This document shows, piece by piece, positions 45,001 to 59,255 of a stretch of DNA of 64,000 nt. Source of the DNA: a virus; IMG/VR virus record IMGVR_UViG_3300003654_000069, positions 1 through 64,000 of that record, one strand, 5' to 3'. The notes under the pieces are model-generated. The model was not told the origin of the DNA. It did not search any database and worked only from the letters and a program-made list of their open reading frames with translations. A program made the translations under genes and the position numbers. The stretch's first letter is position 1; every line of letters begins with the position of its first letter.

Positions 45001-47158
45001 ATATTACAAAAGTAAAATCAGTTATTAGTTTATGTTTAGGATGCTCTGGTTGTTCATCAAAACTACCCTCAACCTTACCAGACAACTCACCATAAAGTTT
45101 AAGTTCTCTTGAGGATAAATATGGATTATTGAATGAAGTATCAGGTGAATGGAATGAAAACTGATTTTTTGATAATCCACCACTAGGATTCTGAGTAGTT
45201 GGATCATCAAAAGCATTTGATAATGTAGCACCTCCGGAAGTTTCTTCTTCAGAAAGAAAAGGATCTCCCAGAGTAGCATAGGGACCAATATCTACCTGTG
45301 GATTATAAGGATAATTCTGGAATAATACTGTGGGACCACTATCAAGTGTAGTAACCCTCATGTTATTAATGATACCTTTAGCAATAACTGTTTTATTTCC
45401 TTCTCTTGAACCTCTGAGGATCTCAAATCCAGCTATACCTGGAATTAAATTACCTGCATTATCTACAGGAGGACGCACATTCTCAAATTTTACTCCGAGA
45501 AGAATTATTTTACCTAAAGCTGCATCATAATGAGTAATTGTTCTATTCTCTGGAAACTTATGGTGTCTTATCTGGTCACCACATGTATCATATTGTGGTA
45601 TGGTAGTTCCTGAAAGAGGTGGAACAGATAATTGATATGGCTGAGAACCAGGAGCTATGGCTGTCCAAGGATTAATGCTAGGATTAAACATCTCAGCTTT
45701 ATCATCGGGATACTTCTCTGTAGATTCCCAATAACCCATATATCCATCAGCTATTTCAACACCACCATCAGGAAGTGTTATCTGATTAATAGGTAATATG
45801 GGAACTATAGTAGCAGTATTAATTGTCTGCCAAGTCTGAGTTTCAGTAATATCAAGTACACTACCTGCTGGTGGAGCTGCTGTATCAGAAGGAATAAAAG
45901 GTCTTCCTGGAATATGATACGAAGCAGACTTATCTCCAGTGGTATATATAAATCTTACAAAAAATGGATATACCTCATCTCTCATATAACTGGTCTTGTT
46001 ACCACCCTTAGCATAGAAATCAGCAGGATAGGCTATAGCAGACCATTTAGTTACTATTTGATTAGCAAGAGGTTGATAATTGAAATCAAACTTACTAGTC
46101 GGACCAAGTCGGACCAAATGAGGTCCGATAGTATGCATACTCTCAGACCTTTCATATGTTGGTGAAATAAACGGGATATCCTCAACTGGTATAGAAGGTA
46201 AGGCCTCATTGATGTAATCGATAAAGATCTGTGCTTGTCTTACACTATAATTACCGATTCTCTTTGCGGAAGTCTGTTGATTAATAGTCCTTACAATAAC
46301 AAGATCAAAATAATCGAAATATTTCTTGTCAATCTCTTTAATAGTCAGGATAAGCGAACCAGCAACATTGAGATGTTCAAAGATAGGTTGTATATCAGAA
46401 GGAAGAAAGTAATCTGTAACTCTCTCGCCATTAAGAGTATATGCAATAATTGCATAATAAGAACCGTTTAGAACAGTACCTCCATTAGTTCCTCGGGTTA
46501 ACTCCAAACATGGAGTTTTCATAAGTGATTGAAGTCTTATAAGATCACAATCAAGTTGAAGAGGTATATTATTGGTACAGGTAACACAACCTACAGAAAT
46601 ATAATTAGGTGGTCCAGGAAGGACTACTAGATTCTCATCAACACATGTTTGCATATAGGGCACACCAGGCCACGGCTGCGAGTAAGGTGCTGTTGAAATA
46701 TTACCAATATTGAGTACTCTGGATGGATTTAGCCCATCATCCCAGTATACATGCCAAGTACAGTCATAACTCTCCTTAGATTGCCCTGTAATAAGATTAT
46801 GAGTATTGAAAGCCAGACAGGTATCCCTAACAATTTGGGTATATTTACATAACCCCTCATCAAAAAAACCTATTTCAGAATTAGTATTATCAGTTGAGAA
46901 AATAACCCATCGATCATCTAGAAGATGAACTACACCTATAATTATATACGGTACATCTAATGGATTCAGGCTATTAGGAATACATATCTTAGTAGAAGGT
47001 TCATTACCAACAGTACCGGTATGCCCATCCTTAGAGTTATTAATACCATTTCTTAGGTGATACCATGCACCTTCTGGTTGAAATGTTCCATCAGCATCCT
47101 TCACCATCCCTTTCAGGAAAGTATTTGACTTATCCGGACTATTCTGGTCTTCTGCCAT
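42044..47158 (-). CDS. 1704-aa large virion structural protein (tail hub, nozzle or stabilisation-type candidate)
   Basis: Long ORF with beta-rich, Trp/Tyr/Asn/Gly-rich composition. It sits between small structural genes and the ejection proteins. I recognised no catalytic motif. Confidence 0.5.
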   Translation of the reverse strand: MAEDQNSPDKSNTFLKGMVKDADGTFQPEGAWYHLRNGINNSKDGHTGTVGNEPSTKICIPNSLNPLDVPYIIIGVVHLLDDRWVIFSTDNTNSEIGFFDEGLCKYTQIVRDTCLAFNTHNLITGQSKESYDCTWHVYWDDGLNPSRVLNIGNISTAPYSQPWPGVPYMQTCVDENLVVLPGPPNYISVGCVTCTNNIPLQLDCDLIRLQSLMKTPCLELTRGTNGGTVLNGSYYAIIAYTLNGERVTDYFLPSDIQPIFEHLNVAGSLILTIKEIDKKYFDYFDLVIVRTINQQTSAKRIGNYSVRQAQIFIDYINEALPSIPVEDIPFISPTYERSESMHTIGPHLVRLGPTSKFDFNYQPLANQIVTKWSAIAYPADFYAKGGNKTSYMRDEVYPFFVRFIYTTGDKSASYHIPGRPFIPSDTAAPPAGSVLDITETQTWQTINTATIVPILPINQITLPDGGVEIADGYMGYWESTEKYPDDKAEMFNPSINPWTAIAPGSQPYQLSVPPLSGTTIPQYDTCGDQIRHHKFPENRTITHYDAALGKIILLGVKFENVRPPVDNAGNLIPGIAGFEILRGSREGNKTVIAKGIINNMRVTTLDSGPTVLFQNYPYNPQVDIGPYATLGDPFLSEEETSGGATLSNAFDDPTTQNPSGGLSKNQFSFHSPDTSFNNPYLSSRELKLYGELSGKVEGSFDEQPEHPKHKLITDFTFVISALLGIGNAIMAIKGQRRTSYISPYVSNIGMILTGPGSSGFAPSPAGSGAAGAAALITYRNTFDQEEVEPTGGATLLSLVASLFGDEPLLVTTYKNAAVVALSTPGVSGGQENIETDQSDFGYLPKFMKTTNSLVMFSNYWSKSTEAVMELIKALIPFTQYAMRYTSHGFMDNYAIGNVNAGNFRHIIADAIYVDDQFQDFNVNPLAQTKINNLYRSKTVVLQTLASNIPRPLTIDNSVQTIGSCVRGDLGLPVGTLVSFKPDDAKEEFNTTACSQYAAMKKRMRNQYGQLEGIVQIPASTCPVYTTGLAAPYSTAIVFNGDTYVCRYTEKNTFFYFWDWLYDQPDGYEWNYKLRYMLNFPRYWADFTDYDINEFITGGTIDLTAPPFVSIPLPNDRARLDGANLNQGSIGSPGLFRMKNRYFYTFNSAVRDFYVESVINTELRDWGDPMEQRYYDPNRFSDVRTLFDPKIIKSGNFVKYDTSLSISRVFNNFFPWGSLQKREYNPTIAETCFVFYPNKLIYSLPQTLESVKDFWRVFLVNNDKDFKHHLISIKPLGMTGAVLLFDTASPQIFQGVDELKTDAGVKITVGDGALFDREPQNIINADSSYEYGSCQDSLGVINTPSGLFWMSANQGKIFNYAGGLREISNLGMKWWMTRYLPFKILEDFPDFSLTNNPVAGVGCQSIFDNKNGIVYFTKKDFKRKPGLIGAQVILDSTYEGFVHATLGFPITLGDPQYFDDASWTLSYDIKSKDGQWLGFHDWHPDLSIPSKNDFLTTVHTPANQGQIWRHGVLTNSYCNYYGIDYPFEIDYIASTGQQVTTVRSIEYLLECYIYDEIGTDAFHVLDANFDHAVVYNSEQVSGILILNVVPKNDIVQTLQYPIVNATSIDILAAKVEQKYRINQFWDITEDRGEFTFPTVQRKIWQTESNGYIRILNPANLFYGKSPLQRKKFRHYTNHVMFYKNISGNIKMYVKLINTKELISVR

Positions 47159-47161
47159 AAC

Positions 47162-48103
47162 TTATACTGCATTGTTAACATTACCCTGAAGCTGACCATC
47201 ATATGATTTGAACATATCATAGTACTTACTATACATGGCCTTTCTATTTGCTACCCATAGTTTCTGCATTTCACTGAAGTTAGGGGTATTAACAATATTT
47301 AGAGCATAGTTTCTGGCAACTCTAAGTCTCTGATCAATAATTTGCATCTGAGCTATAAGGTTCTCTCCACCAAGGATAAGATTCTCAATTATTCTTTGCT
47401 TTACTGCATATTCATAATATTCATTAATCTCAGGATGATCAACAACAAGTAAATTTCCATCAGGATCAACAAGTTGTCCCTGGTAATTGATATACATCTT
47501 ACCATGTGTGAAATTAGTGAAGACAAATCCATCTCTGATATAGGCTTCATTCGTATGTCCGTGATGTTTTCCCCAGTTTAATCCCAAGTTTGGACACTCA
47601 CAATTAATAAATTTTGAATTCTTGAATACTACCTGATGAGAAAAATCATAATGTCGAGTATAGGTATTTACCTTCTGAATAATCTTATATTCTGCTCCAC
47701 ACTCGGTAAGACAGACTGAAGGAACACACTGAAAAGCAGGAGCACATGGATCTGTGGAATTCGGAAATGTCTTATATGTTGGAAATAAAGGAGTATTTAC
47801 AGATACCTCTTCAATATGGGTACCCTGAGGTGGTATGATAATCTCTGTAAAGCTCCCACACATAAGAGCAAAGTTCATTACAAAGAAGTCATCTGGAAGC
47901 TTTGCTTTATTATGCTCAATTTCAATAATTGTTTCTTTAGTCATCTGAACCCTAAGACCCAAATCATAATTGACACGAAGTGCAACCTTTGCAAGCTCTG
48001 CAGGTGTAATCTTTCCAGAAACATCAAGTGTTTTAAGATCCATACTTGCATCAGCAAGCAGCTGTTCCAATGTTCTGTATTTAAGAGTATAATTATAATT
48101 CAT
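47162..48103 (-). CDS. 313-aa hypothetical structural protein
   Basis: ORF in the operon. Its start overlaps the upstream stop as TAATG. Confidence 0.75.
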   Translation of the reverse strand: MNYNYTLKYRTLEQLLADASMDLKTLDVSGKITPAELAKVALRVNYDLGLRVQMTKETIIEIEHNKAKLPDDFFVMNFALMCGSFTEIIIPPQGTHIEEVSVNTPLFPTYKTFPNSTDPCAPAFQCVPSVCLTECGAEYKIIQKVNTYTRHYDFSHQVVFKNSKFINCECPNLGLNWGKHHGHTNEAYIRDGFVFTNFTHGKMYINYQGQLVDPDGNLLVVDHPEINEYYEYAVKQRIIENLILGGENLIAQMQIIDQRLRVARNYALNIVNTPNFSEMQKLWVANRKAMYSKYYDMFKSYDGQLQGNVNNAV

Positions 48104-48765
48104 TACCTAAGAATATTAATTTTATCATGAGCTGCTGGATCTGCAGGTATCTGTATTTGAGTCATCATTTCTTTAAGAGTAAATTGTTCTACCTCAGCAA
48201 AGATATCTTCTGGAATAGGAGCAGCTGTATCCTGATTAATCATACATTTATCAGCTTCACATAAAAATGATGATATATCACCTGACCAGACTCCTTCAAT
48301 ATTTACAGATGACCAGATGATATTAGGAAAGTAAAGAAAATCATTCAGATAATAGTAATATTTAGTTTTATCATATTTAGCTCCCGATGTTTTACTAAAA
48401 TGAATATAGGTAGCTAACTCTGTAGGATAGACTCTACTACTACCATCTACAGCAGTTATTGCTCCTAGAAGAACACCACTTGTACTATCAAGTAAAGATG
48501 GTAATTTCTCTTTTGTTCTCATTATAGTACAACCAGACTGAATATCACAGCATGCTTCTACCTTGTCAACTTCTATAAGAGCAACACAAGGAAGTGTCCG
48601 ATAAGCACTATTTGCTGAATTAGGACTTGCCTTAATATTACGACTTATAATAAAAGCTGCATATTTTAGAATAACACTATAAATGTTCCTATCTGTAAGG
48701 AAAGGATCAATTTTTACAGCTTTTAGGGCATTTCTTACCCGAGAGATTGTTTCTGCTATTATCAT
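48103..48765 (-). CDS. 220-aa hypothetical structural protein
   Basis: ORF in the operon, with an ATGA overlap to the upstream gene. Confidence 0.75.
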   Translation of the reverse strand: MIIAETISRVRNALKAVKIDPFLTDRNIYSVILKYAAFIISRNIKASPNSANSAYRTLPCVALIEVDKVEACCDIQSGCTIMRTKEKLPSLLDSTSGVLLGAITAVDGSSRVYPTELATYIHFSKTSGAKYDKTKYYYYLNDFLYFPNIIWSSVNIEGVWSGDISSFLCEADKCMINQDTAAPIPEDIFAEVEQFTLKEMMTQIQIPADPAAHDKINILR

Positions 48766-49494: not shown

Positions 49495-50034
49495 TTAAGG
49501 TTTTGTATTAATTCTTAATGTTACAGAATAACAATTTCCAGAAGCACAAAAGGTATTCACTCTTATCAAATAAGTATTAGCAGATAAAAGATTTACAATA
49601 ACTGCAGTATTTGGACCTAAAGGTGACTGAGGTGGTAAAAGAGTCCAAGGGGCTACAGTAAGCAGCTTATACTCTACCTGATAACTTGTAGCTGTAGGAG
49701 ATGATACCCAGGCTATAGCAATACTATTACTAGTAATTTGATAAGGATAAACATAAGGAGAAGATTGACAAGCTGATGCAGGATTAATGCATCCCGGATT
49801 AGTTAACCATATGCTAATCATCTGCATGATTTGAGCTACAGAAGCTCCCTCTGGAAAGTTTGTATCTACAATACTATAATCATTTTGATAGACACATGCC
49901 TGATCTATGAATTCCACACATGTCTGAGGAACCGGACAATTAGGATCAGGTAGACAGGCGCAAGAAGGGACTGTTGTAAAAGGTCCATCTTTACAACCAC
50001 AACCTGGACCAGAACCGCATTTTTTACAAGCCAT
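49495..50034 (-). CDS. 179-aa cysteine-rich fibre or receptor-binding-type protein with a C-terminal FN3-like domain
   Basis: 13 Cys in 179 aa, with N-terminus MACKKCGSGPGCGCKDG. The FN3-like part is listed as a separate feature. Confidence 0.7.
   Translation of the reverse strand: MACKKCGSGPGCGCKDGPFTTVPSCACLPDPNCPVPQTCVEFIDQACVYQNDYSIVDTNFPEGASVAQIMQMISIWLTNPGCINPASACQSSPYVYPYQITSNSIAIAWVSSPTATSYQVEYKLLTVAPWTLLPPQSPLGPNTAVIVNLLSANTYLIRVNTFCASGNCYSVTLRINTKP
49507..49761 (-). other. fibronectin type III-like domain
   Basis: SIAIAWVSSPTATSYQVEYKLL...W...NTAVIVNLLSANTYLIRVNTFC fits the W / Y-x-V-x-Y / L-x-x-x-T-x-Y-x-x-R-V pattern of FN3. Confidence 0.55.
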
Positions 50035-50035
50035 T

Positions 50036-51568
50036 TTATATAGTATTAATTGTAGTTATGAAAGCTTGAGGACAGACAACAGGTGAACCAGAATTTACCT
50101 GAACTGTTATTAAAATATAATAAGTAGTTCCCGGTGTCAATGCTATAAATGTTCCTGATACCGTTGCTGCAAGAGCAGGATTTATTGTAGTTTGACTACT
50201 AATCAGAACATTATCAAGACCATAAATCTCTACTGTATAAGTAACCGGCCCGGTAACAGTATTAACAAAACTGTAATCTATAGTAGTATCAGTAGGAGTA
50301 AGAATAATAGTTTCCTGAGGGCATGGTACAGTGTTAATAATACTATATGTTAAAATCCTTTCACATTGTAATCCACCACAATCAGCACCTGGTGAAGATC
50401 TTACCCAACATCCCTGTATTGAAATTATAAGGTTTGTAGCTACATTAATAGGTGAACCAGAAAGATTTACAACAAAACTTCCGTTTAGATTAGTTATCAC
50501 AGAAACATTTGTTATAAAAATATTACCAGCACCATCAGTTATAGTAACCTGATTACCACTTGGAGAACAATCTACCATTCCTGCAGGAACAGAACCTGTA
50601 AAGTAGAGAGTCAAATTAGTTCCTGTTAATGAAGCTGTAAGATTAATATTTACATCATCACAATCTGTGCAACAACAAGTTTTAAGAATATTAAGAACTG
50701 CAGCTCTCATATCACATATAGCAATCCATTGATTATTAATAGAATCTGCTAGAGTTGAATATTGAGAAGATACTGCCCATCCTGGAAGAGTACCCATTGT
50801 GGTATTCAAATTAGCTAAAGAAGGAGAGATATCAAGATTAGAACACTGTTTCTGAATAGCCAAAAGTATTTCTATAGGAGAACCTGTAACTGATTCAAGT
50901 GTACAAAATTGTGTTTCCAAATTCTGAACTACAGTCTGAATAGGAAAACCACCAGGTGGTGGTGGTCCAAGAAGACAGCTAGATGGAATAAGTATTTCAC
51001 AAGATGGTTCATTTTCAAGAACGGTTACTCTTGCATCAATATTTGATACATTAATATTAGTATTATTAAGACCAGCTGCTATAGTTGCAACCTCTCCAAT
51101 CAAAAGGCAAAGTCTATTACCTATAGCCTGAGCATAGTCAGCCACGGTCATAGTGGTAACCCAGTCTCCAATTGGATTAAGATATCGGAAACAATCAGCT
51201 ATTGGTACATCCTGACCACCCATTCGAGCAGAACCATCCTCAGGACAACACTCTTTACATGTAGGAGGACAACCAGGTTCAAATACACAATTTTCTATTG
51301 CACAGATTCTACCTATTAGAAACTGAATAAGATCATGAAAGTTCTTTGGAGTAGGACAAATAGGGTTAAAACAAGTTAAATCGTAGGTCTTTATGTCTAA
51401 CTGATTAAGAATATCACATAATTCAGTAGCTAGTTTAGCAACTACATCTGATATAGAGTCTCCATGACATAGATTAATGCAAGGAATATCTGGTCCTTGC
51501 CAAATTACACAGTTAGAACTTACAGGATTGCAACCTTGTCCGGAAGTAATATTTGTTGGTAATGCCAT
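50036..51568 (-). CDS. 510-aa cysteine-rich fibre or receptor-binding-type protein
   Basis: 30 Cys in 510 aa, including CCC and CKECC clusters. The C-terminal ~90 aa are FN3/Ig-like (TYTVEIYG...LTPGTTYYILITVQV). Confidence 0.7.
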   Translation of the reverse strand: MALPTNITSGQGCNPVSSNCVIWQGPDIPCINLCHGDSISDVVAKLATELCDILNQLDIKTYDLTCFNPICPTPKNFHDLIQFLIGRICAIENCVFEPGCPPTCKECCPEDGSARMGGQDVPIADCFRYLNPIGDWVTTMTVADYAQAIGNRLCLLIGEVATIAAGLNNTNINVSNIDARVTVLENEPSCEILIPSSCLLGPPPPGGFPIQTVVQNLETQFCTLESVTGSPIEILLAIQKQCSNLDISPSLANLNTTMGTLPGWAVSSQYSTLADSINNQWIAICDMRAAVLNILKTCCCTDCDDVNINLTASLTGTNLTLYFTGSVPAGMVDCSPSGNQVTITDGAGNIFITNVSVITNLNGSFVVNLSGSPINVATNLIISIQGCWVRSSPGADCGGLQCERILTYSIINTVPCPQETIILTPTDTTIDYSFVNTVTGPVTYTVEIYGLDNVLISSQTTINPALAATVSGTFIALTPGTTYYILITVQVNSGSPVVCPQAFITTINTI

Positions 51569-51592
51569 TTGTTATAATTTACTAAATTTTAT

Positions 51593-52126
51593 TTAACCTA
51601 TTATTACTACACGATAAGTTCCAGGTATTGTAGGGTATATACTTAATTGATCTGCCGTCATATCATATATTATACTACAAGTAGATGTAACTTTAACCCA
51701 TTCATTGGTAGTAATATCCAACCACCAAACAGTTATAGCAAAATCAATTACATAAGGTGTATTAATAGAAGAATCAACAATACAAGTTTCTACTAAAGGA
51801 CCACAGGTAGATACATCAGTACCAGTGATTGTTATTGGTATTATTGTCTGGTTTCCTTCTGGATCAGGTATTGATAAAACAACCTCAAATGTTTTAGCAT
51901 ATTTAATTAAGGTAGGAGGACATATACAAATACCAGTTGGACCAGTTGGCCCGATTGCACCTGTGGCTCCGTCAGTTCCATTTGTTCCTGCTAAACCTGT
52001 TGCACCTGTGGGACCAATAGGACCGGTTAATCCAATAGGACCTTCTGGACCCATAGGAGCAGGATATTGATAGCATACCTGACTTGGGCAACAACAGGGA
52101 TTTGAATTACAATTATGACAACTCAT
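51593..52126 (-). CDS. 177-aa collagen-like fibre protein with Cys clusters flanking the triple-helix segment
   Basis: [13 protein letters not shown], then 14 G-X-Y triplets, then GICICPP, then a globular C-terminal domain. Confidence 0.8.
51926..52051 (-). repeat. collagen G-X-Y triplet repeat (14 triplets)
   Basis: [40 protein letters not shown]. Confidence 0.9.
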
Positions 52127-52130
52127 TTTA

Positions 52131-52643
52131 TTATAAATTTACTATATGATACAAAATATAAATTTTTATTGTGCCGTCTCCTGTTAAAGAATCTGAACCA
52201 ATTTGAATTAGCAATGGCTCGTTTTCAATTATGTTTAATCCGCCTGTATTTATAAAAGAAGAATTTTTGCGAGTTGCATTACAAACAAAACCAGCATAAT
52301 ATTGCATTTGCATTGTCCCCGAAGGATTTTTTAAATTAATAATACTACTCGTAAACCCCACACTTACAAATGTTTCTGCTATGTTTGCCTCAATAACTAC
52401 TATCGCTTTGCCTGCTCCTGGCGATGGTATCGCTTCAATAGGAATTGAATTTCCTGTTTTGATTTGGTCTGCCATGAGGGAAACAGTAATGCTTTCAAGA
52501 GTAGTACCTGGACCAGCAGGACCCATTGGACCTATTGAACCTAGGATACCTTGAGCACCAGGAGGTCCCATTAGTCCTGGTGGACCTACAATTTGTATTG
52601 TTGATTGGCAACAACAATTATTATTTCCACAATTACAACTCAT
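52131..52643 (-). CDS. 170-aa collagen-like fibre protein (paralogue)
   Basis: [12 protein letters not shown], then about 8-9 G-X-Y triplets ([27 protein letters not shown]), then a globular C-terminal domain. Confidence 0.8.
52506..52586 (-). repeat. collagen G-X-Y triplet repeat (~9 triplets)
   Basis: Read from the translation of the 170-aa ORF. Confidence 0.85.
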
Positions 52644-53154
52644 AATGATTAACTATATTATATCCGGTTGTTTGATTAGATACTAATGTTATACCTCCAA
52701 AAGTTCCTACTTCTGCAAAAAGAGATAAAGTAGCATTTACAGTATCTATAGTATCAAGATTGTCCGGATCAATACTAATATCGAAAGTTCCACTTGTTCC
52801 AAAAGCATCTTTTATAACCAGAGTATTTCTTTGAGCAAAAATATTACTTGCAGGAAGTAATTGAACTACTACAGATCCTAAACTAGTATCTATTAAAAGT
52901 ACATCTTCATCTCCGACAACTGTATATGTCGTTGCTGGACCTATATCTGGACCTGAAGGTTGACCTATAATATTAACAACCATTATAGGAGGACAAGGAC
53001 ATTCACCTTCAGGACCAATAGGACCTTCTGGACCTATTGGACCTGGATTACCCTGTATACCAGCAGGACCTTGAGGACCCATAGGACCTGGTAACTGATA
53101 CGGAATACTCGGAGTACAATTACAAGGATTCGGATTACAATTATGGCAGCTCAT
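52633..53154 (-). CDS. 173-aa collagen-like fibre protein (paralogue)
   Basis: MSCHNCNPNPCNC, then 10 G-X-Y triplets, then GECPCPP, then a globular C-terminal domain. It overlaps the next gene by 11 nt. Confidence 0.8.
   Translation of the reverse strand: MSCHNCNPNPCNCTPSIPYQLPGPMGPQGPAGIQGNPGPIGPEGPIGPEGECPCPPIMVVNIIGQPSGPDIGPATTYTVVGDEDVLLIDTSLGSVVVQLLPASNIFAQRNTLVIKDAFGTSGTFDISIDPDNLDTIDTVNATLSLFAEVGTFGGITLVSNQTTGYNIVNHYEL
52999..53088 (-). repeat. collagen G-X-Y triplet repeat (10 triplets)
   Basis: GPMGPQGPAGIQGNPGPIGPEGPIGPEGEC. Confidence 0.9.
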
Positions 53155-53192
53155 ACTATAATATAAGGTTTTTTACTGATTAATCAAAGAGG

Positions 53193-54077
53193 TTAACAAA
53201 TTAGTTTTGAAAAATCTGACAATTCTTTCTGAATCCAGATTTTATTAAGATTTTTAGGACAACAAGATTCTATTCCATATTGTTTATACTTAAACATCTC
53301 ATAGGTCATATTTGCAAAGACTTTGTTTGCTTGAATATCACATTCTTTTTCACAAATCCTATAGGTATGCTTATCTATCTCAGGAATACTTGGTTGAAAA
53401 GGAGGTTCCGGTTCTGGAGGTACTGGAGGAAGACAGCATTCACAATCAGGAAAACACTCTATAGTTCCAGTAATAGGAACTTCAACACATGGTTCATGTT
53501 CAAGTCTTTCTGGAACTTCTATTCCAGTAGGAATAGGATCGTCTATTATACAACAGTCTGTAACTTCTACAATATAACATATACAAACTCTTGGAAATTC
53601 TGTTCCTGGTCCACCGGTACATATCCTTATTACTTGTCCTACATATTCAGATAAATCGGTATTTGTTATTATAATAGGAGTTAGACCAGTACAATCAGTA
53701 AGCTTATAACAATCACACTTACAACCCGAAGGACCCCACTCAACTATAATTGATACGCTAATACCACCAACTGTAAATATAACATTTGGTGGATCAATTT
53801 CTACAAAAGGACAAGTTGTGGTTAATGTAATTGTAAAATAACACCAATCACCAATAAGACCACTAGCTACGATAGATATATTAGTTATAGGTAATACTGG
53901 CGGTAAAATAGCAGTTGCAAGAAGAGCATTTATCTCTACTAAGGTTGTTATACCTGGGTCATAATCAACAGTAAAAGGACTTGTATAACCAACAATTTCT
54001 ATTGTATTATTACCTTCTAGAAGACCAATCCGAAAGGATCCTCTATAATAACAACTATTTAGTAAGTGCGATGACAT
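53193..54077 (-). CDS. 294-aa cysteine-rich hypothetical virion protein (start moved to the internal Met)
   Basis: The ORF track starts at 54119 and overlaps the upstream 62-aa gene. The ATG at 54075-54077 (MSSHLLNS) lies 1 nt after that gene's TAA. The product has CxC, CC and CxxC clusters and a Pro-rich stretch (LPPVPPEPEPPFQPS). Confidence 0.65.
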   Translation of the reverse strand: MSSHLLNSCYYRGSFRIGLLEGNNTIEIVGYTSPFTVDYDPGITTLVEINALLATAILPPVLPITNISIVASGLIGDWCYFTITLTTTCPFVEIDPPNVIFTVGGISVSIIVEWGPSGCKCDCYKLTDCTGLTPIIITNTDLSEYVGQVIRICTGGPGTEFPRVCICYIVEVTDCCIIDDPIPTGIEVPERLEHEPCVEVPITGTIECFPDCECCLPPVPPEPEPPFQPSIPEIDKHTYRICEKECDIQANKVFANMTYEMFKYKQYGIESCCPKNLNKIWIQKELSDFSKLIC

Positions 54078-54078
54078 T

Positions 54079-54267
54079 TTATGTATGAGGTGTAAAAGGA
54101 CCTCTAGGAGGTGAAACATATCCTGGTATAGGAGATCCGGATCTTTTAGTAGCGTTATAAGTAGCTACACATTTTGTACAACACATCTTTCCATCAGATG
54201 CTGTAGTTAATTTTGCTCCCGCACATCCTACACAGGATATTCCGCAGTTTGGACATGATTGTGCCAT
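54079..54267 (-). CDS. 62-aa Cys-rich, zinc-ribbon-like small protein
   Basis: CPNC-x4-CVGC ... CCTKC. It is preceded by an AAACCAA-repeat leader. Confidence 0.5.
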   Translation of the reverse strand: MAQSCPNCGISCVGCAGAKLTTASDGKMCCTKCVATYNATKRSGSPIPGYVSPPRGPFTPHT

Positions 54268-54297
54268 AATATTGGTTTATTGGTTTATGTTGGTTTA

Positions 54298-54411
54298 TTA
54301 AGGACTTACTTCTACTATTGTAAGAATATATCCAAAGTATCCGGCAATAGCAATTACTACTGCAATGATTAATACTTTGTACTTTTTCAAAAATGCTTTT
54401 ATTTGTGACAT
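54298..54411 (-). CDS. 37-aa single-pass membrane mini-protein; not in the ORF track because it is under 60 aa
   Basis: My own translation is MSQIKAFLKKYKVLIIAVVIAIAGYFGYILTIVEVSP*. It has a basic N-terminus and a 20-residue hydrophobic core. It nearly fills the otherwise unexplained 172-nt gap (54268-54439) between two genes. Confidence 0.4.
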   Translation of the reverse strand: MSQIKAFLKKYKVLIIAVVIAIAGYFGYILTIVEVSP

Positions 54412-54439
54412 TGTATTGGGTTTTAAGGGGTTAATATTT

Positions 54440-54997
54440 TTAGCAGTCCGGACATCCGCAACCACAAGATAGTTTTTTTAGTTTACCTACTACATAATTA
54501 TACATTTCCATTCCTTTTTTAGGATGATGACAGTACTCTACATTAGCTTTAGCTCCTTTTAGAAGCATCCACAGTTCCTGAAGTTCCCGAATCTGAGACT
54601 TTGTAGGCTCAATAGGTTCACAAGCTGCCAGATCTAAACAACAAAGTAACTTATTTATTTGATTGAGAGCACATGTAATCCGAAGATGGTTATACTCTAC
54701 ATAGACCTGATCGTTAGGAGAAAGGCTGTATCTGATCACATATACCCCATCAGGAAGAGGATTAAACTGAACTCCACAGTTATATATCTGAATTCCGAGC
54801 TCACAGGCATTTAGATTTACCGAAAATCCGGTTTGGATATTAGTTACCACAGAAGGTAACTGAAATCCAGGAAGAGTAACTTCAAGTTTAGGACATTCTT
54901 TAGGAACATCCTCACTATATAAACTAGAATCACATACTTTAAAAGTTACCTCCGATAAGGTATCCGGAATATCAAGAGCAAGAAGATGTTTTGCCAT
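54440..54997 (-). CDS. 185-aa cysteine-rich hypothetical virion protein
   Basis: ORF ending in KKLSCGCGCPDC, with scattered Cys pairs (LLCCLDLAAC). Confidence 0.7.
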   Translation of the reverse strand: MAKHLLALDIPDTLSEVTFKVCDSSLYSEDVPKECPKLEVTLPGFQLPSVVTNIQTGFSVNLNACELGIQIYNCGVQFNPLPDGVYVIRYSLSPNDQVYVEYNHLRITCALNQINKLLCCLDLAACEPIEPTKSQIRELQELWMLLKGAKANVEYCHHPKKGMEMYNYVVGKLKKLSCGCGCPDC

Positions 54998-55012
54998 GTA
55001 GGTTCTTTTAAG

Positions 55013-55046
55013 TAAAAAAGGGGATGAGGTTTTTCCTCACCCCCCT
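55013..55046 (-). terminator. strong rho-independent terminator after the 523-aa gene
   Basis: The minus-strand RNA reads GGGGGUGAGG AAAAA CCUCAUCCCC UUUUUU. This is a 10-bp stem with one G-U pair, a 5-nt loop and a U6 tract, 22 nt after the stop. Confidence 0.8.
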
Positions 55047-55068
55047 TTATTACTGATTTTTATATCAA

Positions 55069-56640
55069 TTACGCAGTAACGGTGATTTGCAGTGCAAAAC
55101 AACCAGTCAGTGCTCCAAATTGGTCAGTAACAGTTACTGTGACATTGGCAGTACCTATATTAGCCAGAATAACAGTACCAGAAATTATTCCAGTATTGGC
55201 ATTAAGAGTTAATCCTGTAAGTAATGTTCCAGTCATAGTAAATCCACCAGTTGCAGGAGGTGTAACTCCAGCAGGTACAGTTACCTGGTAACTATATGCA
55301 ACAGCAGCAACACCTTGTGGGGCTACTGCAGGAATTGCACAACATGGATCTATACAATTTAGGAATTCCATTCCAGAACATGGTCCACATGATGCAGTCC
55401 AGTTAGCTAAGAATGTTTGTAAATTTGTATCAATACCATTTGTGATGATTTCAAGCATGTACTGATCATTATCAAACACTCCACTAGGATTGTTGAAACG
55501 AGGTACATTATGTAACAGATGATATACAGTATAGAAAGAATTTCTATTAATCGCACTAGTTACATCATAACCCTGAGTAATCTCACGGATTCTAAGGTCA
55601 CTACCAGTATAGAAAGGAGTTTGCATGTATGATTCAGAAAGAATCACATCACGAAGGATTGTTTCACCAAAACCCATTCCCTGACGAGGACAGCAGATTG
55701 TTTTTACACAAATTCCGGTAAATGCACATACATCACCTGTATAATCTTCCATTTCTATATAGAGTTTTACAGGCTCTTTTTCAAAGAAGTCAGAAGGATA
55801 GAAAGTGCAGTCTCCGAACTTAGTATCAATATATCCTCCGGCAATGGTCATACCAGCACCAGGAGTAGTAGCGCTACATGCAACTACAGCTACAGGTACA
55901 TAAGCAGCCCATGCGGTAGTATCATTTACACCACCAACAGCTACACCTGATTGGTTATATACAATAACCTGAAGGAATGGAGCTGTGATTGGATTTGTTA
56001 CAAATTCAGTTGCCCATGCAATATATACTGATGTAGGATCTACTGGAAGAGGTAGTAATGCAGTAGGATCACAGCATCCAGTCCACTTTGCAGTAGTTCT
56101 ATATGCATTATGATGCAAATAACGAAGAGCGGGTGATCCCTTGATATCAATTCTTAAGCTGTAACTTTCGTTGCAGAGGAATTGAAAACAGCATCCTTCA
56201 GAACCAGATACAGTAAACGGAGTATTTCCGATACCAAGAACTGATTGATTAGGAAGACATGGGGTCACACGGTACATCCTACTAATGTACTTAGGATTGA
56301 TCATTTTCGATTTAGTTGATTCCTGGTATCCACCAGCAAAAGGACCAATCTTGTCATTCTGGTATAAGGCTGAAGAAGCCAAAACCAGAGGACAGCAAAC
56401 ATAGCCGCCACTAGAAAGATTGGAATTGTTGACATTTGTCTGACCATCAGGAGTGAAGAATCCAAAGGATCCTAATCCGAGGCCAGTTGCTGCTGTTGGT
56501 CCGGGGTTAATCAGACTTGCAGTTGTGTAAGAGTTTGCACCAAAGATGAAACCACTTACATTCTGTGATTGAGCAGCATTTGCTGTCTGCTTTTTCGTTC
56601 CCAGAAAAGATTTGTTAAAGGCATGATTAAAGTAAGCCAT
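55069..56640 (-). CDS. 523-aa abundant-looking Cys-rich virion surface protein with a C-terminal Ig-like domain (alternative capsid or decoration candidate)
   Basis: It has its own upstream gap and A-rich leader and its own strong terminator. 20 Cys. The C-terminal Ig-like repeat is listed as a separate feature. Confidence 0.6.
   Translation of the reverse strand: MAYFNHAFNKSFLGTKKQTANAAQSQNVSGFIFGANSYTTASLINPGPTAATGLGLGSFGFFTPDGQTNVNNSNLSSGGYVCCPLVLASSALYQNDKIGPFAGGYQESTKSKMINPKYISRMYRVTPCLPNQSVLGIGNTPFTVSGSEGCCFQFLCNESYSLRIDIKGSPALRYLHHNAYRTTAKWTGCCDPTALLPLPVDPTSVYIAWATEFVTNPITAPFLQVIVYNQSGVAVGGVNDTTAWAAYVPVAVVACSATTPGAGMTIAGGYIDTKFGDCTFYPSDFFEKEPVKLYIEMEDYTGDVCAFTGICVKTICCPRQGMGFGETILRDVILSESYMQTPFYTGSDLRIREITQGYDVTSAINRNSFYTVYHLLHNVPRFNNPSGVFDNDQYMLEIITNGIDTNLQTFLANWTASCGPCSGMEFLNCIDPCCAIPAVAPQGVAAVAYSYQVTVPAGVTPPATGGFTMTGTLLTGLTLNANTGIISGTVILANIGTANVTVTVTDQFGALTGCFALQITVTA
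55072..55332 (-). other. Ig-like ('putative Ig'/He_PIG-type) domain
   Basis: YSYQVTVPAGVTPPATGGFTMTGTLLTGLTLNANTGIISGTVILANIGTANVTVTVTDQFG matches the Y-x-Y...LP-x-GL-x-L-x-x-x-TG-x-ISGT...V-x-V-x-D pattern. Confidence 0.6.
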
Positions 56641-56730: not shown

Positions 56731-57432
56731 TTAATTTGATCTTTCTGCTAATTGGGTTCCTCGACTGAACTGACTACCTGATTCTATGTCTCCTGCCAGG
56801 ATAGATACTGCCTCATCAATTATTAATTCAGTAATATCATCCTTAAATTCAGATTCTACATCAACTGTTGACATAATGTTGGTATAAGGATCTACACAAT
56901 TAGCAACTTGAATTCTGATAGGTTGTCTATAATAGGTTAAAATAGCAGAAGGGATTGTAAATTCACCATTTGTATAAATTCTTGCTTTTTCACCTATGAA
57001 GGTCATAAAGGTTTCTCCCCAGTCAAAACTAGGTTTTTTGTTTACATCTCTTAATAAGACAGCAACATTGGCCTCCTCAGTCTGGTAGACTACCATTCTT
57101 CGATCTGGACAACAATCAGTGGATGCATATGCATCTAATCTTTTAAATTCGAAATAATCTGCCGGTATGACAGCTGTTTCATAATAAACTGGAAAGGGGG
57201 ATAATAGAGGTGTAACTTCCTTAAGTAGTTGTTCCAGATCATCAATTCTCCTTTTGGATTGTTCATCTCCCTGTTTCAGAATATTTGTTCCTGCAAGCTG
57301 TCTTCGACACCATGCTACCTGACTCTTATTAAATGCTTCAACAATCTGCCAACATTCTATATTATCAAAATCCTGAGAATCAAGTTTGTTGATCCGCTGT
57401 TTTACTTTTATTTGAAGTGTTGAATTAAGCAT
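56731..57432 (-). CDS. 233-aa hypothetical protein (head-tail joining position)
   Basis: ORF in the operon. I recognised no motif. Confidence 0.7.
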   Translation of the reverse strand: MLNSTLQIKVKQRINKLDSQDFDNIECWQIVEAFNKSQVAWCRRQLAGTNILKQGDEQSKRRIDDLEQLLKEVTPLLSPFPVYYETAVIPADYFEFKRLDAYASTDCCPDRRMVVYQTEEANVAVLLRDVNKKPSFDWGETFMTFIGEKARIYTNGEFTIPSAILTYYRQPIRIQVANCVDPYTNIMSTVDVESEFKDDITELIIDEAVSILAGDIESGSQFSRGTQLAERSN

Positions 57433-57613
57433 TATCTTTTTTAGATACTTGAAATAATGAAGATTTCTCCTGAGCAGCTAGTCTTTCTTCAGCTCGTTCT
57501 CGGAAGTATGCTAAAGGTTCTTTGGATCCCTTCTTGAGTTCTCTCTTAAATTCTTCTTTCAGAACCATGTATGAACCATTATTAGCATATCTTTTAACTA
57601 GTTCTCTAGCCAT
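57425..57613 (-). CDS. 62-aa highly charged small protein
   Basis: ORF with an 8-nt overlap to the downstream gene. The composition is helical and K/E/R-rich. Confidence 0.5.
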   Translation of the reverse strand: MARELVKRYANNGSYMVLKEEFKRELKKGSKEPLAYFRERAEERLAAQEKSSLFQVSKKDNA

Positions 57614-57627
57614 AATTTTAGTTTTAG

Positions 57628-58653
57628 TTATTTAATCCAGTCTTTTTCTACTTTCTCCATGAGCATATCAAGAATCTTGTCATTCAGAGGATTCTTGAAA
57701 AATTCAATTAATTCTGAACTGTTCCTTCCAAGCATCGTGTTACTCTGACTATGATATAACATTCCATCAGATTTGAGCATGATGTACTTGAAATAGGTTG
57801 AGTCCTTTATAAGAGCACGGATTTTTAATGTCTCCATGTCCAAATCACATGTAGTGATAAACTCTTGGGCTGCTCGCTTTGCATTTGTCTGAGATCCTTC
57901 TCCATTAATGAATTTATCAAGATTATCATAAATTACATCATTTGGAGTAGATTTTTTATACTGAACACTATTCGGATCAACAACCTTTGCTACATAGAAC
58001 ATCTTATTGGTATTCTTGTCAAAGAGTTTCTGAAGTTCTGATAAAGCCTTATTTCGAAGTTTTCTAGGCTCATTCTTTGTAATAGCTGTATCCTCATACT
58101 TATCTAAATAGAACTTAGGAGGAACAGGTGTTGACCTGGCAGTATCAAATGATTTTGCAACACTACTGAAACCCCCTGCCTCAATTGCATAGAGCTTTAT
58201 CAGATCATAAGGATCCTTCTCAATATCAAGAATCAAGGGTTGATTACTCAATCTAAGACGAATCTTTCCCCAAAAACTATGATTACCAGGATTAAGAAGT
58301 TTAACTTTTGACCAAAAATCCTCATCTGTAATCTTAATTACATTAGATCCCAGCTCTCTTTCAAGCTGAGCTACTATAGTACGGATCTGTTTAATCTTTG
58401 CAACTTTTTCATCTTCATCTGCAATAAGTTTAATTTCCGGTGCAAATTCATTAAGTCCAGTGACATATCTTACTACACCATTATTTTCAATACAAGCTAA
58501 ATCCTCTTCATGAAATACTCCATCAAAGAGAGCCAGGTTGTACTTCTCGAGTCCCATGTTAGATACATTAGGATCAAAATAAGGTCTGATTGCAATAGGT
58601 CCCTTTTTTAAGGCCTGATGCTTTTCAACGATTGTTACTGTTGCTGTTGTCAT
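57628..58653 (-). CDS. 341-aa hypothetical virion protein
   Basis: ORF preceded by an AAACCAA-repeat leader that is nearly identical to the one at 54268-54297. Confidence 0.75.
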   Translation of the reverse strand: MTTATVTIVEKHQALKKGPIAIRPYFDPNVSNMGLEKYNLALFDGVFHEEDLACIENNGVVRYVTGLNEFAPEIKLIADEDEKVAKIKQIRTIVAQLERELGSNVIKITDEDFWSKVKLLNPGNHSFWGKIRLRLSNQPLILDIEKDPYDLIKLYAIEAGGFSSVAKSFDTARSTPVPPKFYLDKYEDTAITKNEPRKLRNKALSELQKLFDKNTNKMFYVAKVVDPNSVQYKKSTPNDVIYDNLDKFINGEGSQTNAKRAAQEFITTCDLDMETLKIRALIKDSTYFKYIMLKSDGMLYHSQSNTMLGRNSSELIEFFKNPLNDKILDMLMEKVEKDWIK

Positions 58654-58683
58654 TGGTTTATTGGTTTGTTGGTTTATATTAAA

Positions 58684-59118: not shown

Positions 59119-59149
59119 TTTATTTAGTTTTATATTGTTAGAGCTAACC

Positions 59150-59157
59150 CAAAGTTA
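59150..59157 (-). promoter_or_regulatory. candidate -7 box (TAACTTTG = TAnnTTTG)
   Basis: It lies in the 137-nt gap after the 541-aa gene, 31 nt upstream of the ATG at 59118. A GUGACC/GGUCAU hairpin (about 59223-59240) lies upstream. I found no clear -33. Confidence 0.3.
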
Positions 59158-59255
59158 TGAGCTTTGTTCAGGCTTATTACCTGGCCCGGACATCCGGTGA
59201 CTAGCTTATATTTTTAAGATAATGACCTTACGGGGTCACAATATCTCAAATTTAT

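Follow-up and report, generated by a model that had tools for sequence, protein, structure and literature searches.

The window, by which we mean the whole stretch of 64,000 nucleotides that was analysed, is the virion module of a distant, uncultured crAss-like phage. Within it lie three tandem genes, named here A, B and C, each of which encodes an N-terminal Cys cluster, referred to below as the tag, a short collagen-like run of GXY triplets and a C-terminal domain of its own, referred to as the head. The earlier note on this DNA had described this arrangement, and the three ORFs were confirmed at exact coordinates on the minus strand. The genes and the surrounding module are as follows.

59256-60881, minus strand: crAss-type major capsid protein (MCP; Pfam Crass_capsid, E=2.6e-31)
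49495-56640, minus strand: ten consecutive Cys-rich genes (3.5-11.3% Cys by Cys counts), collagen genes included
53193-54119, minus strand: 308-aa protein, 7.1% Cys, directly upstream of the array (family comparison)
52633-53154, minus strand: gene A, 173 aa, with Cys tag, 10 GXY, CPCPP cap and a head modelled as gp10/XD-like (ORF list)
52131-52643, minus strand: gene B, 170 aa, with Cys tag, 9 GXY and B-type head (ORF list)
51593-52126, minus strand: gene C, 177 aa, with Cys tag, 14 GXY, CICPP cap and C-type head (ORF list)
50036-51568, minus strand: 510-aa core protein, 5.9% Cys, conserved in all relatives
49495-50034, minus strand: 179-aa core protein with the tag-like N-terminus MACKKCGSGPGCGC and an fn3-like C-domain (Pfam and orthologues)
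48103-48765, minus strand: tail ring protein 2 (Pfam CrAss_Ring_2, 4.8e-18)
47162-48103, minus strand: tail ring protein 1 (Pfam CrAss_Ring_1, 2.4e-9)
42044-47158, after ring protein 1: muzzle-like protein, 1704 aa (crAss_MUZ annotation on contig L002)

A Crass-type MCP, rings 1 and 2 and a muzzle, followed by giant downstream ORFs (957-4038 aa in the window) where cargo or RNAP-like proteins are expected, mark the module as crAss-like, and according to Pfam and the crAss_MUZ annotation its gene order is MCP, Cys-rich block, ring 2, ring 1, muzzle. The collagen genes are densely packed on the strand of the structural genes, as overlapping ORFs (A and B share 11 nt) or ORFs spaced by 4 nt. When the region was compared by blastn with 50,697 phage records, there were zero matches, and the nearest phage by MCP, Leptolyngbya phage Lbo-JY46, is with 28.6% identity too distant to be of help in the comparison. 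A GC content of 35% and the absence of Shine-Dalgarno sites point to a host among the Bacteroidota; the samples of origin are JGI 3300003650/3300003653 and SRR22808005/SRR22808009. The promoter and terminator scan of 49-57 kb gave nothing above chance level. The same protein A is also encoded by the JGI contigs L002 and L003. On contig SLW02, gene B looks split only because a run of N marks a gap in the assembly there, which is of no biological significance. The parts of the three genes are given below.

53116-53154, minus strand: A tag MSCHNCNPNPCNC, residues 1-13, with Cys 3, 6, 11 and 13 (motif read-out)
52999-53088, minus strand: A collagen-like run, 10 GXY, residues 23-52 (triplet scan)
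52987-53001, minus strand: A post-helix cap C-P-C-P-P, residues 52-56 (motif read-out)
52636-52986, minus strand: A C-terminal head, residues 57-173, beta-rich (AF2 and Foldseek)
52608-52643, minus strand: B tag (motif read-out)
52506-52586, minus strand: B collagen run, 9 GXY, residues 20-46 (triplet scan)
52134-52505, minus strand: B-type head (remainder of gene B)
52088-52126, minus strand: C tag (motif read-out)
51926-52051, minus strand: C collagen run, 14 GXY, residues 26-67 (triplet scan)
51914-51928, minus strand: C cap C-I-C-P-P (motif read-out)
51596-51913, minus strand: C-type head with 3 further Cys (remainder of gene C)

The measured numbers of uninterrupted G-X-Y triplets, 14 in C, 10 in A and 9 in B, agree with the 14, 10 and about 9 claimed before. 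Across the six frames of the window, these are the only GXY runs of at least 6 triplets, and they lie far above chance expectation. In the comparison with Pfam Collagen (PF01391), C scores 28.1 bits and exceeds the gathering threshold of 27.2, whereas A (20.6 bits, E=3.7e-4) and B (16.5 bits) stay below it because their helices are so short. If triple-helical, the stalk of A would measure about 8.6 nm. The second Cys motif, claimed for two of the three proteins, is indeed found directly after the helix in A (GECPCPP) and C (GICICPP), where the first Cys occupies the Y position of the final triplet, and B is without it.

The tag has the consensus M-(S)-C-x(1,2)-C-x(4,5)-C-x(1,3)-C and comprises roughly 13 residues at the extreme N-terminus. 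In the alignments, its four Cys are invariant in every tagged homologue, and linker, helix length (5-18 triplets) and heads vary; the number of tag Cys ranges from 4 to 6, with the extra Cys present as CCC or CC. Conservation of the Cys caps in homologues, on which the earlier note had made its reading depend, holds for the N-terminal Cys4 tag, while the post-collagen C-x-C is restricted to a subset: the cap is conserved in P0001 (GECPCP) and P0125 (SCPCP) and is missing from B, from P0127, P0133, P0137, P0146 and P0148, and from most other members of the A family, so that it cannot be essential. With it, the Cys pair of a collagen cystine knot, that is two Cys per chain at the helix end, is present in A (G-E-C-P-C) and C (G-I-C-I-C) and absent in B and most A-family homologues in the alignment. 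Two such Cys per chain, C-x-C spacing included, are enough for a knot of three interchain disulfides, by which the helix is held in register and its folding nucleated (PMC12107170). The likeness of A and C to the knots of type III/IV collagen is an analogy only, since there is neither homology nor a secretory pathway and the tag, with its 4-6 Cys, has a pattern unlike the animal motifs.

The tag also heads non-collagen proteins, among them the core protein of 175, 179 or 103 aa that always follows the 510-family gene, which agrees better with a tag for docking than with an element tied to collagen. On this small protein, adjoining the ring genes, the tag is ancestral. Unrelated proteins bear the tag as well, in further large contigs of viral origin (L086, L089, L091, L092) and in a single MAG-binned genome contig (L099). 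Several more DNA-pattern matches to the tag in genome contigs were discarded as internal or out of frame, and only that in L099 looks genuine. As judged from the motif, the tag Cys could be disulfide-bonded or metal ligands, with either chemistry conceivable, and we infer disulfides. When a protein is made in the cytoplasm, CxxC/CxC pairs of this kind are typical of metal sites too.

The dissimilarity of the C-terminal domains claimed before was borne out by the profile comparisons: between the A and B families (hhalign), the tag with 18 columns is the only common region, and between the A family and C the common part of 39 columns consists of the tag and the collagen start. For A, an AF2 model based on a 2-sequence alignment was unusable (pLDDT 33), and a full HMMER search supplied 16 sequences, with which a mean pLDDT of 82.9 was reached for the whole protein and mostly above 90 for the head. 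Foldseek searches of the PDB with this head returned 7rej, 7rfo and 7rfv (E 5e-5 to 8e-4, TMq 0.47-0.48; 7rej_A with E 5.2e-5 and probability 1.0), 5iv5_AC (602 aa, the length of gp10; E 6.4e-3, rmsd 2.3 A), as well as 9f4b_FA and 24qj; a weaker match was the phage capsid spike 9ny6_C (E 2e-3, rmsd 16 A). The matches in BFVD are baseplate wedge, tailspike and tail fibre proteins. The head of A, and of A only, is therefore confidently modelled as the XD-type beta-rich fold of T4 gp10 and CBA120 TSP4-N. XD domains are trimeric modules which dock other trimers or act as spacers in systems with several receptor-binding proteins (PDB 5IV5, 7REJ; PMC8825819). As with these, the A-type domain occurs in tandem copies, and it also ends a 989-aa protein with fibre-like repeats. 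However, A shows no sequence similarity to the XD domains and its match is to their fold in general, its domain is C-terminal behind collagen whereas theirs is N-terminal in a tailspike or baseplate protein, and B and C carry other heads. Since the modelled fold is that of modules for protein-protein docking or spacing, A, at least, may serve as an adaptor instead of providing one of the alternative receptor-binding tips that the earlier note had suggested.

For the heads of B and C, the sequence searches detected no relatives of known function or fold. Two proteins with the tag but without collagen, one in L094 (173 aa) and one in L093 (176 aa), share about 31% identity with the B head, and a word-index homologue search with B gave no match. 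The same search with C returned generic collagen matches and P0004, a 99% variant, which alone matched outside the collagen; in the profile comparison, the C head is unrelated to the A family. A locus search with the A alignment as query was swamped by GXY matches.

In the relatives L093 and L094, the equivalent slot holds 6 to about 8 tag-bearing genes, whereas the array is absent from L088, the MCP of which is 80% identical, and from L102/L105; the genes are thus accessory and exchangeable. Among the tag-bearing proteins, the similarities of the N-terminal modules and of the C-terminal domains are discordant: the N-module of A shares 71% identity with the N-module of a protein of 389 aa whose C-part is unrelated, and A-type heads also stand behind other tag types. 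The slot arrays, the discordant modules and the tag Cys found in all tagged homologues agree with the proposal of a shared N-terminal anchor carrying alternative heads, and a comparison across related phages confirmed that heads and tag/collagen modules have been recombined as cassettes. A second part of the proposal did not hold, namely that near-identical 5' ends would permit recombinational tip swapping. The 5' DNA of the paralogues is only about 70% identical, and the longest exact words in common measure 10-20 nt and are out of register within the collagen repeats, so that no long identical DNA is on offer for recombination; as far as the sequences tell, module exchange is seen at the evolutionary scale only. 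In the larger tag-bearing relatives (389 and 484 aa) and an untagged array member of 428 aa, Pfam and PHROG recognised just collagen, so that a depolymerase role is not supported for these proteins. All contigs with placeable true homologues, that is those matching beyond the collagen, look like phage DNA, and the other matches are to the generic GXY repeat.

The block of Cys-rich genes has the capsid genes on one side and the tail ring genes on the other. By comparison, the Cys content is 0-0.6% in the MCP, which has a single Cys, in the genes upstream and in the giant downstream ORFs, which we take to be packaged cargo proteins. A Cys-rich block beside a Cys-poor shell and presumed cargo is what one would predict for Cys-rich proteins with an external position and oxidised Cys. 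Orthologues of the 179-aa core protein carry the canonical tag, MSCNCNNNPCGC in L088 and MSCNCSKCNNKPCGC in L102. The preceding 510-aa protein, whose family reaches 1249 aa in L102/L105 and always has the small tag-bearing protein directly after it, gave no match in Pfam, PHROG or the PDB sequences; it is a candidate for the main fibre or the docking partner. The family of the 308-aa protein measures 602-711 aa in relatives, with variable N-terminal parts and a place beside the tag/collagen array, and in L088, which is without the array, all that remains of it is a 65-aa ORF similar to its C-terminal end. The place that gp36, the auxiliary capsid protein, has in the genome of crAss001 is taken here by a Cys-rich protein of 523 aa with an Ig domain. 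Two small neighbours contain CxxC/CGC-type pairs, the 62-aa MAQSCPNCGISCVGC protein and a 185-aa protein ending in SCGCGCPDC. Searches of the PDB sequences with the 196-, 510- and 523-aa neighbours and a profile of the 185-aa family gave nothing significant, and the 185-aa or 196-aa neighbour was rejected as the crAss001 THA (gp38; BLASTP E 8.7 and 0.33, hhalign probability 0.6%).

We consider it somewhat better than an even chance, with a probability of about 0.55, that A, B and C are accessory homotrimeric virion fibres with interchangeable heads, most likely short side fibres or adaptors at the tail fibres or hub. The Cys4 tag would dock the fibre onto a Cys-rich core virion protein and keep the three chains in register, a role assigned to it because it is the only segment that is neither collagen nor head. 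The stalk would be a collagen triple helix about 8-12 nm long (9-14 triplets), tethered by the tag at one end and at the other by the trimeric head and, in A and C, by the C-x-C-P-P cap as a knot-like element; being very short and without hydroxyproline, such a helix probably needs tethering at both ends. The three unrelated heads would confer different binding or docking specificities, and heads and tag/collagen modules would have been swapped as cassettes among the genes of the slot over evolution.

So understood, the proteins are a variant of the familiar collagen-like phage fibre and not relatives of animal minicollagens. The collagen-like EPclA and EPclB of an E. coli O157:H7 prophage are phage tail fibre or side-tail proteins (PMC3368898), and fibres of this type likewise have an unhydroxylated collagen stalk, which joins an N-terminal part for attachment to a trimeric domain at the C-terminus. 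The PHROG matches of A, B and C, the tail-fibre families 5073, 366, 8745 and 1806, cover the GXY segment only. The proteins described here differ in their much shorter helix of 9-14 triplets, their length of about 170 aa, a 13-residue Cys4 tag in place of the PfN-type domain, and the C-x-C-P-P cap in two of the three. In crAss001, trimeric fibres dock by their N-terminal 26-38 residues, hub and ring are disulfide-stabilised, gp21 (a trimer) and gp29 are head fibres, and the tail fibre gp22 sits on THA2-THB hubs (PMC10172136). This phage is of the same broad lineage (Crass_capsid, Ring1, Ring2, muzzle) and anchors its fibres by a short N-terminal segment. However, its fibres contain no collagen and their N-termini no Cys, so that docking by Cys chemistry has no direct precedent there, and its fibre genes lie upstream of the MCP, a different gene order. 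With about 170 aa, A, B and C resemble the head fibres of crAss001 (97-122 aa) in size as much as its tail fibres.

Two layouts outside phage fibres are comparable. The order of attachment segment, collagen and trimeric beta-sandwich head is found in BclA-like exosporium glycoproteins; three recovered BclA_C proteins (P0100, P0021, P0052) have Cys-rich N-termini ahead of the helix, and a weak BclA_C match was seen in a member of the L094 array. However, A, B and C gave no BclA_C match in Pfam at E<=0.1, their helices are much shorter, and they are set in a phage virion module. The defence collagens, such as collectins, ficolins and C1q, have a Cys-rich N-terminus, a collagen stalk and a trimeric globular head, the overall layout proposed for A, B and C too, with no homology.

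A possible but clearly less probable view of the tag chemistry is that the Cys4 tag, and possibly the cap, binds metal, either as a Zn(Cys)4 knuckle in each chain or as a metal-thiolate cluster of metallothionein type that the three chains would share among themselves or with the docking partner. The anchor would thereby be organised already inside the reducing host cytoplasm; either location on the virion would fit. The invariant Cys stand in two close pairs (C-x1-2-C ... C-x1-3-C) 4-5 residues apart, as is typical of ligands, the lack of a signal peptide implies folding in the cytoplasm, and similar pairs recur in the small 62-aa and 185-aa neighbours. An oxidised extracellular design is suggested instead by the extra tag Cys and the very Cys-rich external neighbours, and disulfides have been directly observed in the crAss001 tail (PMC10172136). 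Furthermore, conserved His or Asp co-ligands are lacking, and in the AF2 monomer of A the tag is unstructured, with a pLDDT below 50.

It is doubtful that the three proteins are instead head (capsid) fibres with varied adhesion heads, the tag of which would plug a hexon pocket of the MCP or auxiliary protein like gp21 and gp29. The 97- and 122-aa fibres of crAss001 are anchored by residues 1-38 and 1-58, with different fibres per hexon pocket (PMC10172136); A, B and C are comparably small and accessory, their genes lie downstream of the MCP and of the Ig-domain protein in the gp36 position, and a capsid spike is among the Foldseek matches. However, the rmsd of that match is 16 A, and the best structural matches of the A head are all baseplate or tailspike components, the MCP offers just one Cys, and the ancestral tag belongs to the protein after the fibre-like 510-family gene, next to the ring genes. 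The tail is the more likely site.

A more far-reaching form of the docking idea, which we regard as unlikely, is that the Cys4 tag acts as a portable redox (or metal) plug, which couples M-S-C-x-C-N-x-N-P-C-x-C proteins to a Cys-rich socket. The coupling would be covalent by disulfide exchange or rest on a metal-thiolate cluster common to both partners, a helix otherwise too short to be stable would be stapled by this chemistry as well, and a variable, interchangeable set of zero to eight fibres per genome would use one socket. Such fibres might lock only upon release into an oxidising environment. The tag on unrelated proteins of the other viral contigs and in L099 would, on this view, point to a docking system of larger extent that has so far gone undescribed.

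It is very improbable that A, B and C are non-virion proteins, that is lysis-released or host-displayed adhesins or decoys encoded within the structural module. Such a function would be compatible with accessory genes that close relatives lack, but the products have neither signal peptide nor membrane anchor, the tightly spaced ORFs are co-oriented inside the virion genes, the A head has a tail-protein fold, and the tag is shared with a core protein of the structural module.

Minicollagens end in 6-Cys CRDs (CX3CX3CX3CX3CC) and have no globular domain. The earlier note had seen their design principle in A, B and C, and the likeness consists in a very short collagen helix between Cys-containing segments; as polyproline stretches, a 6-Cys CRD and a second full Cys domain are missing and a globular head is present, the minicollagen label stands for an analogy only. 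Horizontal transfer from minicollagens or animal cystine-knot proteins can practically be dismissed, since the similarity of 9-14 triplets between Cys and a few Pro is superficial, the Cys pattern differs, there are at most PP (PPPP in relatives), two C-side Cys, a globular head and no signal peptide, and the true homologues lie on phage-like contigs, with generic GXY matches as the remainder. Cnidarian minicollagens have 14-16 triplets, Pro stretches of 14-23 residues on the N-side and 6-9 on the C-side, and characteristic Cys patterns (PMC2289959). C with 14 triplets falls into this range, and A (10) and B (9) are shorter; A and C have at most PP after the helix and B none, with nothing before the helix in any of them. 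The N-side pattern here is C-x1-2-C-x4-C-(C)-C, and the C-side has C-x-C or, in B, nothing. Moreover, minicollagens form networks, whereas A, B and C are phage-borne, made in the cytoplasm and equipped with a globular head of about 100 aa.

In phage receptor-binding proteins, both the collagen-like stalk and the conserved N-terminal anchor on which heads can be swapped are already familiar. Distinct here are the reduction of the anchor to a Cys4 tag of about 13 residues, which is also found on non-collagen virion proteins and on unrelated viral contigs, a helix whose shortness probably makes covalent or metal staples necessary, and a single genomic slot with zero to eight cassettes across related phages. 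The partition of Cys, with rich external proteins and nearly none in the shell and presumed cargo, could help to predict surface-exposed proteins of uncultured phages. If the plug idea were true, a bacterial virus would have a counterpart to nematocyst minicollagens, the assembly of which is driven by disulfides. If the tag is a self-contained docking and stapling module, it would provide engineers with a minimal tag and mini-collagen scaffold for the display of trimeric domains, and it would explain how fibres diversify in environmental crAss-like phages.

Three small tandem genes of the window, A, B and C, lie within the virion module, and their products join a conserved N-terminal Cys4 cluster, here called the tag, and a very short collagen stalk to unrelated, exchangeable C-terminal domains, here called heads. 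Every large ORF of the window is on the minus strand. The genes considered here are the following, with relatives of the Cys-rich neighbours on other contigs (L001, L088, L093, L094, L102) in brackets:

47162-48103, minus strand, tail ring protein 1 (Pfam)
48103-48765, minus strand, tail ring protein 2 (Pfam)
51593-52126, minus strand, gene C, 177 aa
52131-52643, minus strand, gene B, 170 aa
52633-53154, minus strand, gene A, 173 aa
53193-54119, 308-aa Cys-rich family (L094 5436-7571; L093 1210-3018; L088 3599-3796)
54079-54267, 62-aa Cys-rich protein (L088 3754-3927; L102 9496-9684; L094 5202-5435)
54440-54997, 185-aa Cys-rich protein (L001 19831-20355)
55069-56640, 523-aa Cys-rich protein with a C-terminal He_PIG Ig-like domain (Pfam, 3.1e-9)
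59256-60881, minus strand, crAss-type major capsid protein, MCP (Pfam, 2.6e-31)
minus strand, muzzle-like protein, 1704 aa (Pfam)

The window comes from a distant crAss-like phage, of which it represents the virion module; eight giant ORFs of 957-4038 aa lie beyond the muzzle-like gene. A nucleotide search of 50,697 phage records gave no match, and the closest MCP within these records, that of Leptolyngbya phage Lbo-JY46, is 28.6% identical. L002 and L003, two contigs from JGI metagenomes, carry the same phage, and on one of them gene B is only apparently split, by a run of N. A Shine-Dalgarno-like motif was found at none of the 26 gene starts in the window, the leaders being A/T-rich, and the window contains no tRNA genes. 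Together with the GC content of about 35% and the crAss-like module, the lack of this motif points, as far as sequence can tell, to a Bacteroidota-type host. Cysteine is segregated: it makes up 3.5-11.3% of ten consecutive genes (49495-56640), A, B and C among them, as opposed to 0-0.6% in the MCP, in the genes that precede it and in the giant ORFs downstream (1017-47158 and 56731-63962), the 4038-aa ORF having two Cys in total. This suggests an external, oxidised protein set and a nearly Cys-free set of shell and cargo proteins.

A and B overlap by 11 nt, and 4 nt separate B from C. The N-terminus of A is MSCHNCNPNPCNC, and the three tandem ORFs with a Cys cluster and short G-X-Y runs described in the earlier note were recovered at 51593-53154, with 10 (A), 9 (B) and 14 (C) unbroken triplets. 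Runs of at least six triplets are confined to these genes in all six frames of the window, and since Gly accounts for only about 7-12%, runs of this length are not due to chance. Pro occupies 5-7 X positions in each run and seldom Y, a bias also seen in bacterial collagens. The second Cys motif reported after the helix in two of the three proteins is likewise present: A and C have Cys as the last residue of the final triplet, with x-C-P-P after it (GECPCPP in A, GICICPP in C), whereas B lacks this cap. Because the runs are so short, A and B fall below the Pfam Collagen cut-off, which only C exceeds (28.1 bits); the PHROG matches of all three are tail-fibre families, with coverage restricted to the GXY segment. 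In a profile comparison, the three proteins have just the tag in common, and A and C also the start of the helix. The 5' ends, previously described as near-identical, have only about 70% DNA identity, and the longest exact words common to the paralogues, 10-20 nt in the collagen repeat, are out of register.

Close homologues are scarce. A has a single relative with 51% identity, P0001, which retains both Cys motifs (MSCCNQCNSSPCCC and GECPCP), and a full HMMER search with a profile of A and P0001 yielded about 15-20 true family members amid many collagen-only matches. An alignment of 16 A-family sequences shows good conservation of the head (about 100 aa) and helices of 5 to 18 triplets. Wherever the N-terminus is complete, it opens with the Cys cluster, except in P0132, which has neither Cys nor collagen; four of the Cys positions do not vary: M-(S)-C-x(1,2)-C-x(4,5)-C-x(1,3)-C. 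A, P0001 and P0125 have the cap, C-x-C-P, P0141 has an altered version of it, and P0127, P0133, P0137, P0146 and P0148 lack it; it is therefore an optional extra and not a family feature. C-P-C-P also occurs N-terminal to the helix in other array members (MATEPCKPDNKYPPHPCPCPEIPGP...) and immediately before a B-type head without any collagen (L093, 176 aa).

The tag was searched as a degenerate DNA pattern in viral contigs and in 596 Gb of cellular genomes. In the form M-S-C-x-C-N-x-N-P-C-x-C, it begins unrelated non-collagen proteins in several other viral contigs, and the cellular genomes contained one genuine case, L099, a 103-kb contig binned as Lentisphaeria. The tag-headed proteins, of 128-486 aa, are located as follows:

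L086, 7242-7724
L089, 1-1054
L091, 3531-4565
L092, 5621-7081
L099, 6003-6389

One tag-bearing contig is 393 kb long. By eye, the L086 and L099 proteins appear related to each other. No description of the Cys4 tag was found in the family libraries and literature searched, and judging from these sequences it may be a wider N-terminal module, so far undescribed.

AlphaFold2 failed to model A with two sequences (pLDDT 33), and with the 16-sequence alignment gave a mean pLDDT of 82.9, mostly above 90 in the head (residues 57-173), the tag being unstructured in the monomer. The Foldseek matches of this model in the PDB were two tailspikes, CBA120 tailspike 4 in its N-terminal anchor/assembly region (7rej, 7rfo, 7rfv; E 5e-5 to 8e-4, TMq 0.47-0.48) and that of an Acinetobacter phage (24qj), and two baseplate components, a Klebsiella phage baseplate-cup protein (9f4b_FA) and a T4 baseplate chain (5iv5_AC, rmsd 2.3 A) that, with 602 residues, is as long as gp10. 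Matches in BFVD were baseplate wedge, gp9+10, tailspike and tail-fibre proteins, and also some giant-virus collagen proteins. In branched receptor-binding complexes, TSP4 and gp10 have XD domains, trimeric modules of which XD2 and XD3 dock other trimeric fibres and XD1 is a spacer (PMC8825819). Like XD domains, the A-type domain occurs in tandem (P0174 and P0257), and it also ends the 989-aa P0136, which has fibre-like repeats. According to the predicted model, the head of A has a tail-type fold.

Two contigs reached via family members, L094 (25 kb) and L093 (7.8 kb), are syntenic with the window. The gene order, taken in full from L094 as L093 stops within the array, is He_PIG protein, 186-aa Cys-rich protein, 602/711-aa protein, array, 510-aa protein, 180-aa fn3 protein, Ring2, Ring1 and muzzle. 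The array consists of 6-8 small genes, which mostly start with tag variants and most, but not all, of which have a short collagen run; the heads are A-type, B-type, 'QW' type, weakly BclA_C-like or large domains of 389-484 aa. In L094 (8660-9425), a 117-aa tag and collagen gene with a weak BclA_C (C1q/TNF-like) match is followed by a 134-aa ORF, and the two look like one gene broken by a frameshift or an assembly error. The slot contains neither collagen genes nor a 308-family gene in L088, whose MCP is 80% identical to that of the window, and the more distant L102 and L105 have no array. In every relative with a 510-family gene, a small tag-bearing protein directly follows it (MSCNCNNNPCGC in L088, MSCNCSKCNNKPCGC in L102, and MACKKCGSGPGCGC in the window counterpart at 49495-50034), so that a core protein is the ancestral bearer of the tag, which the accessory collagen genes also use. 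The modules are discordant: the best N-module partner of A (34/48 identical) is in a 389-aa protein with an unrelated C-part, and its best head partners carry different tag and linker types, while the N-module of B resembles those of L094-166 and L093-484 and its head those of two tag proteins without collagen. These modules and the arrays in relatives support the earlier proposal from sequence of a single anchor that carries alternative heads exchanged as cassettes; the exchange is evident on an evolutionary scale and does not run through identical DNA within this genome.

The 308-aa family, to which the 602/711-aa proteins belong, adjoins the array, and the array-less L088 has just a 65-aa ORF resembling its C-terminus. 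Its C-terminal region is conserved (…PEIDKHTY…ESCCP.N…IWIQKELSD.SK..C), and its N-terminal parts are highly variable (BNR/sortilin-like in L094, He_PIG in L093). The 62-aa protein, with zinc-ribbon-like spacing (CPNC…C.GC…CC.KC), is conserved in every relative, near or distant, and follows the 185-aa gene there. The 185-aa protein ends in the Cys cluster SCGCGCPDC and is conserved out to Lbo-JY46 (27% identity), which makes it a core protein of this broad clade; it has no detectable homology to the crAss001 hub protein THA and was rejected as its equivalent. The 523-aa protein is present in all relatives, with 432-533 aa. Its place in the gene order is that of gp36, the auxiliary capsid protein of crAss001, and it could have the same role, decorated with an Ig domain.

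A, B and C would be homotrimers, since the trimer is, to our knowledge, the sole known state of GXY helices and XD-like domains are trimeric too. With a rise of 0.286 nm per residue in a collagen helix, their helices of 27-42 residues correspond to 8-12 nm, without hydroxyproline; alone, such a helix is probably too short for stability and would be clamped at both ends. Two Cys per chain suffice for a cystine knot, which clamps the register and nucleates folding, and C-x-C spacing is found in collagen IV chains (PMC12107170). A metal site is a serious alternative for the Cys clusters in view of the paired CxxC/CxC spacing and synthesis in the cytoplasm; the segregation of Cys into this block and the disulfides in the crAss001 hub and rings (PMC10172136) nevertheless favour disulfide chemistry. 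The tag would be the docking element of the fibre, as it is the sole segment beyond stalk and head, the only part common to all array members, and heads a core protein as well; crAss001 fibres are held via their N-terminal 26-38 residues (PMC10172136). A tail location is the likelier one, given the fold of A's head and the association of the tag with the 510-family gene, which adjoins the ring genes; a role as head fibres, like crAss001 gp21/gp29, is less favoured. Receptor binding by the heads is putative.

Collagen-stalk phage fibres, such as prophage proteins of E. coli O157:H7 (PMC3368898), work alike, and the logic of anchor and swappable head resembles that of multi-tailspike phages. The combination of Cys-rich N-terminus, collagen and trimeric head is also that of collectins, ficolins and C1q, and BclA-like proteins, some of them with Cys-rich N-termini, have a similar architecture. 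The fibres of crAss001 differ from A, B and C in that they lack collagen and have no Cys at the N-terminus. Minicollagens are ruled out, since A, B and C lack two of their defining features, polyproline stretches flanking the helix and a 6-Cys domain at each end, and have a globular domain, which minicollagens do not (PMC2289959). The earlier interpretation is partly supported, the architecture and the modular anchor holding and the minicollagen kinship not. Pre-helix Cys clusters were also observed in unrelated collagen-like proteins of BclA_C and other types (P0100, P0021, P0052, L073 ~8609, L044 ~9923), sometimes with Cys after the helix too (...CCDNCNNRCCCNRKNCECCDNCTICPPGPQGP..., MCDEMSNCCCMGAQGPQG...KDCEANNSSC).

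A, B and C are a novel variant form of a familiar kind of collagen fibre. Cys staples beside collagen helices may be a design that recurs in prokaryotes and viruses and has drawn little notice, and the interest would rise if the tag were a general covalent or metal docking plug.
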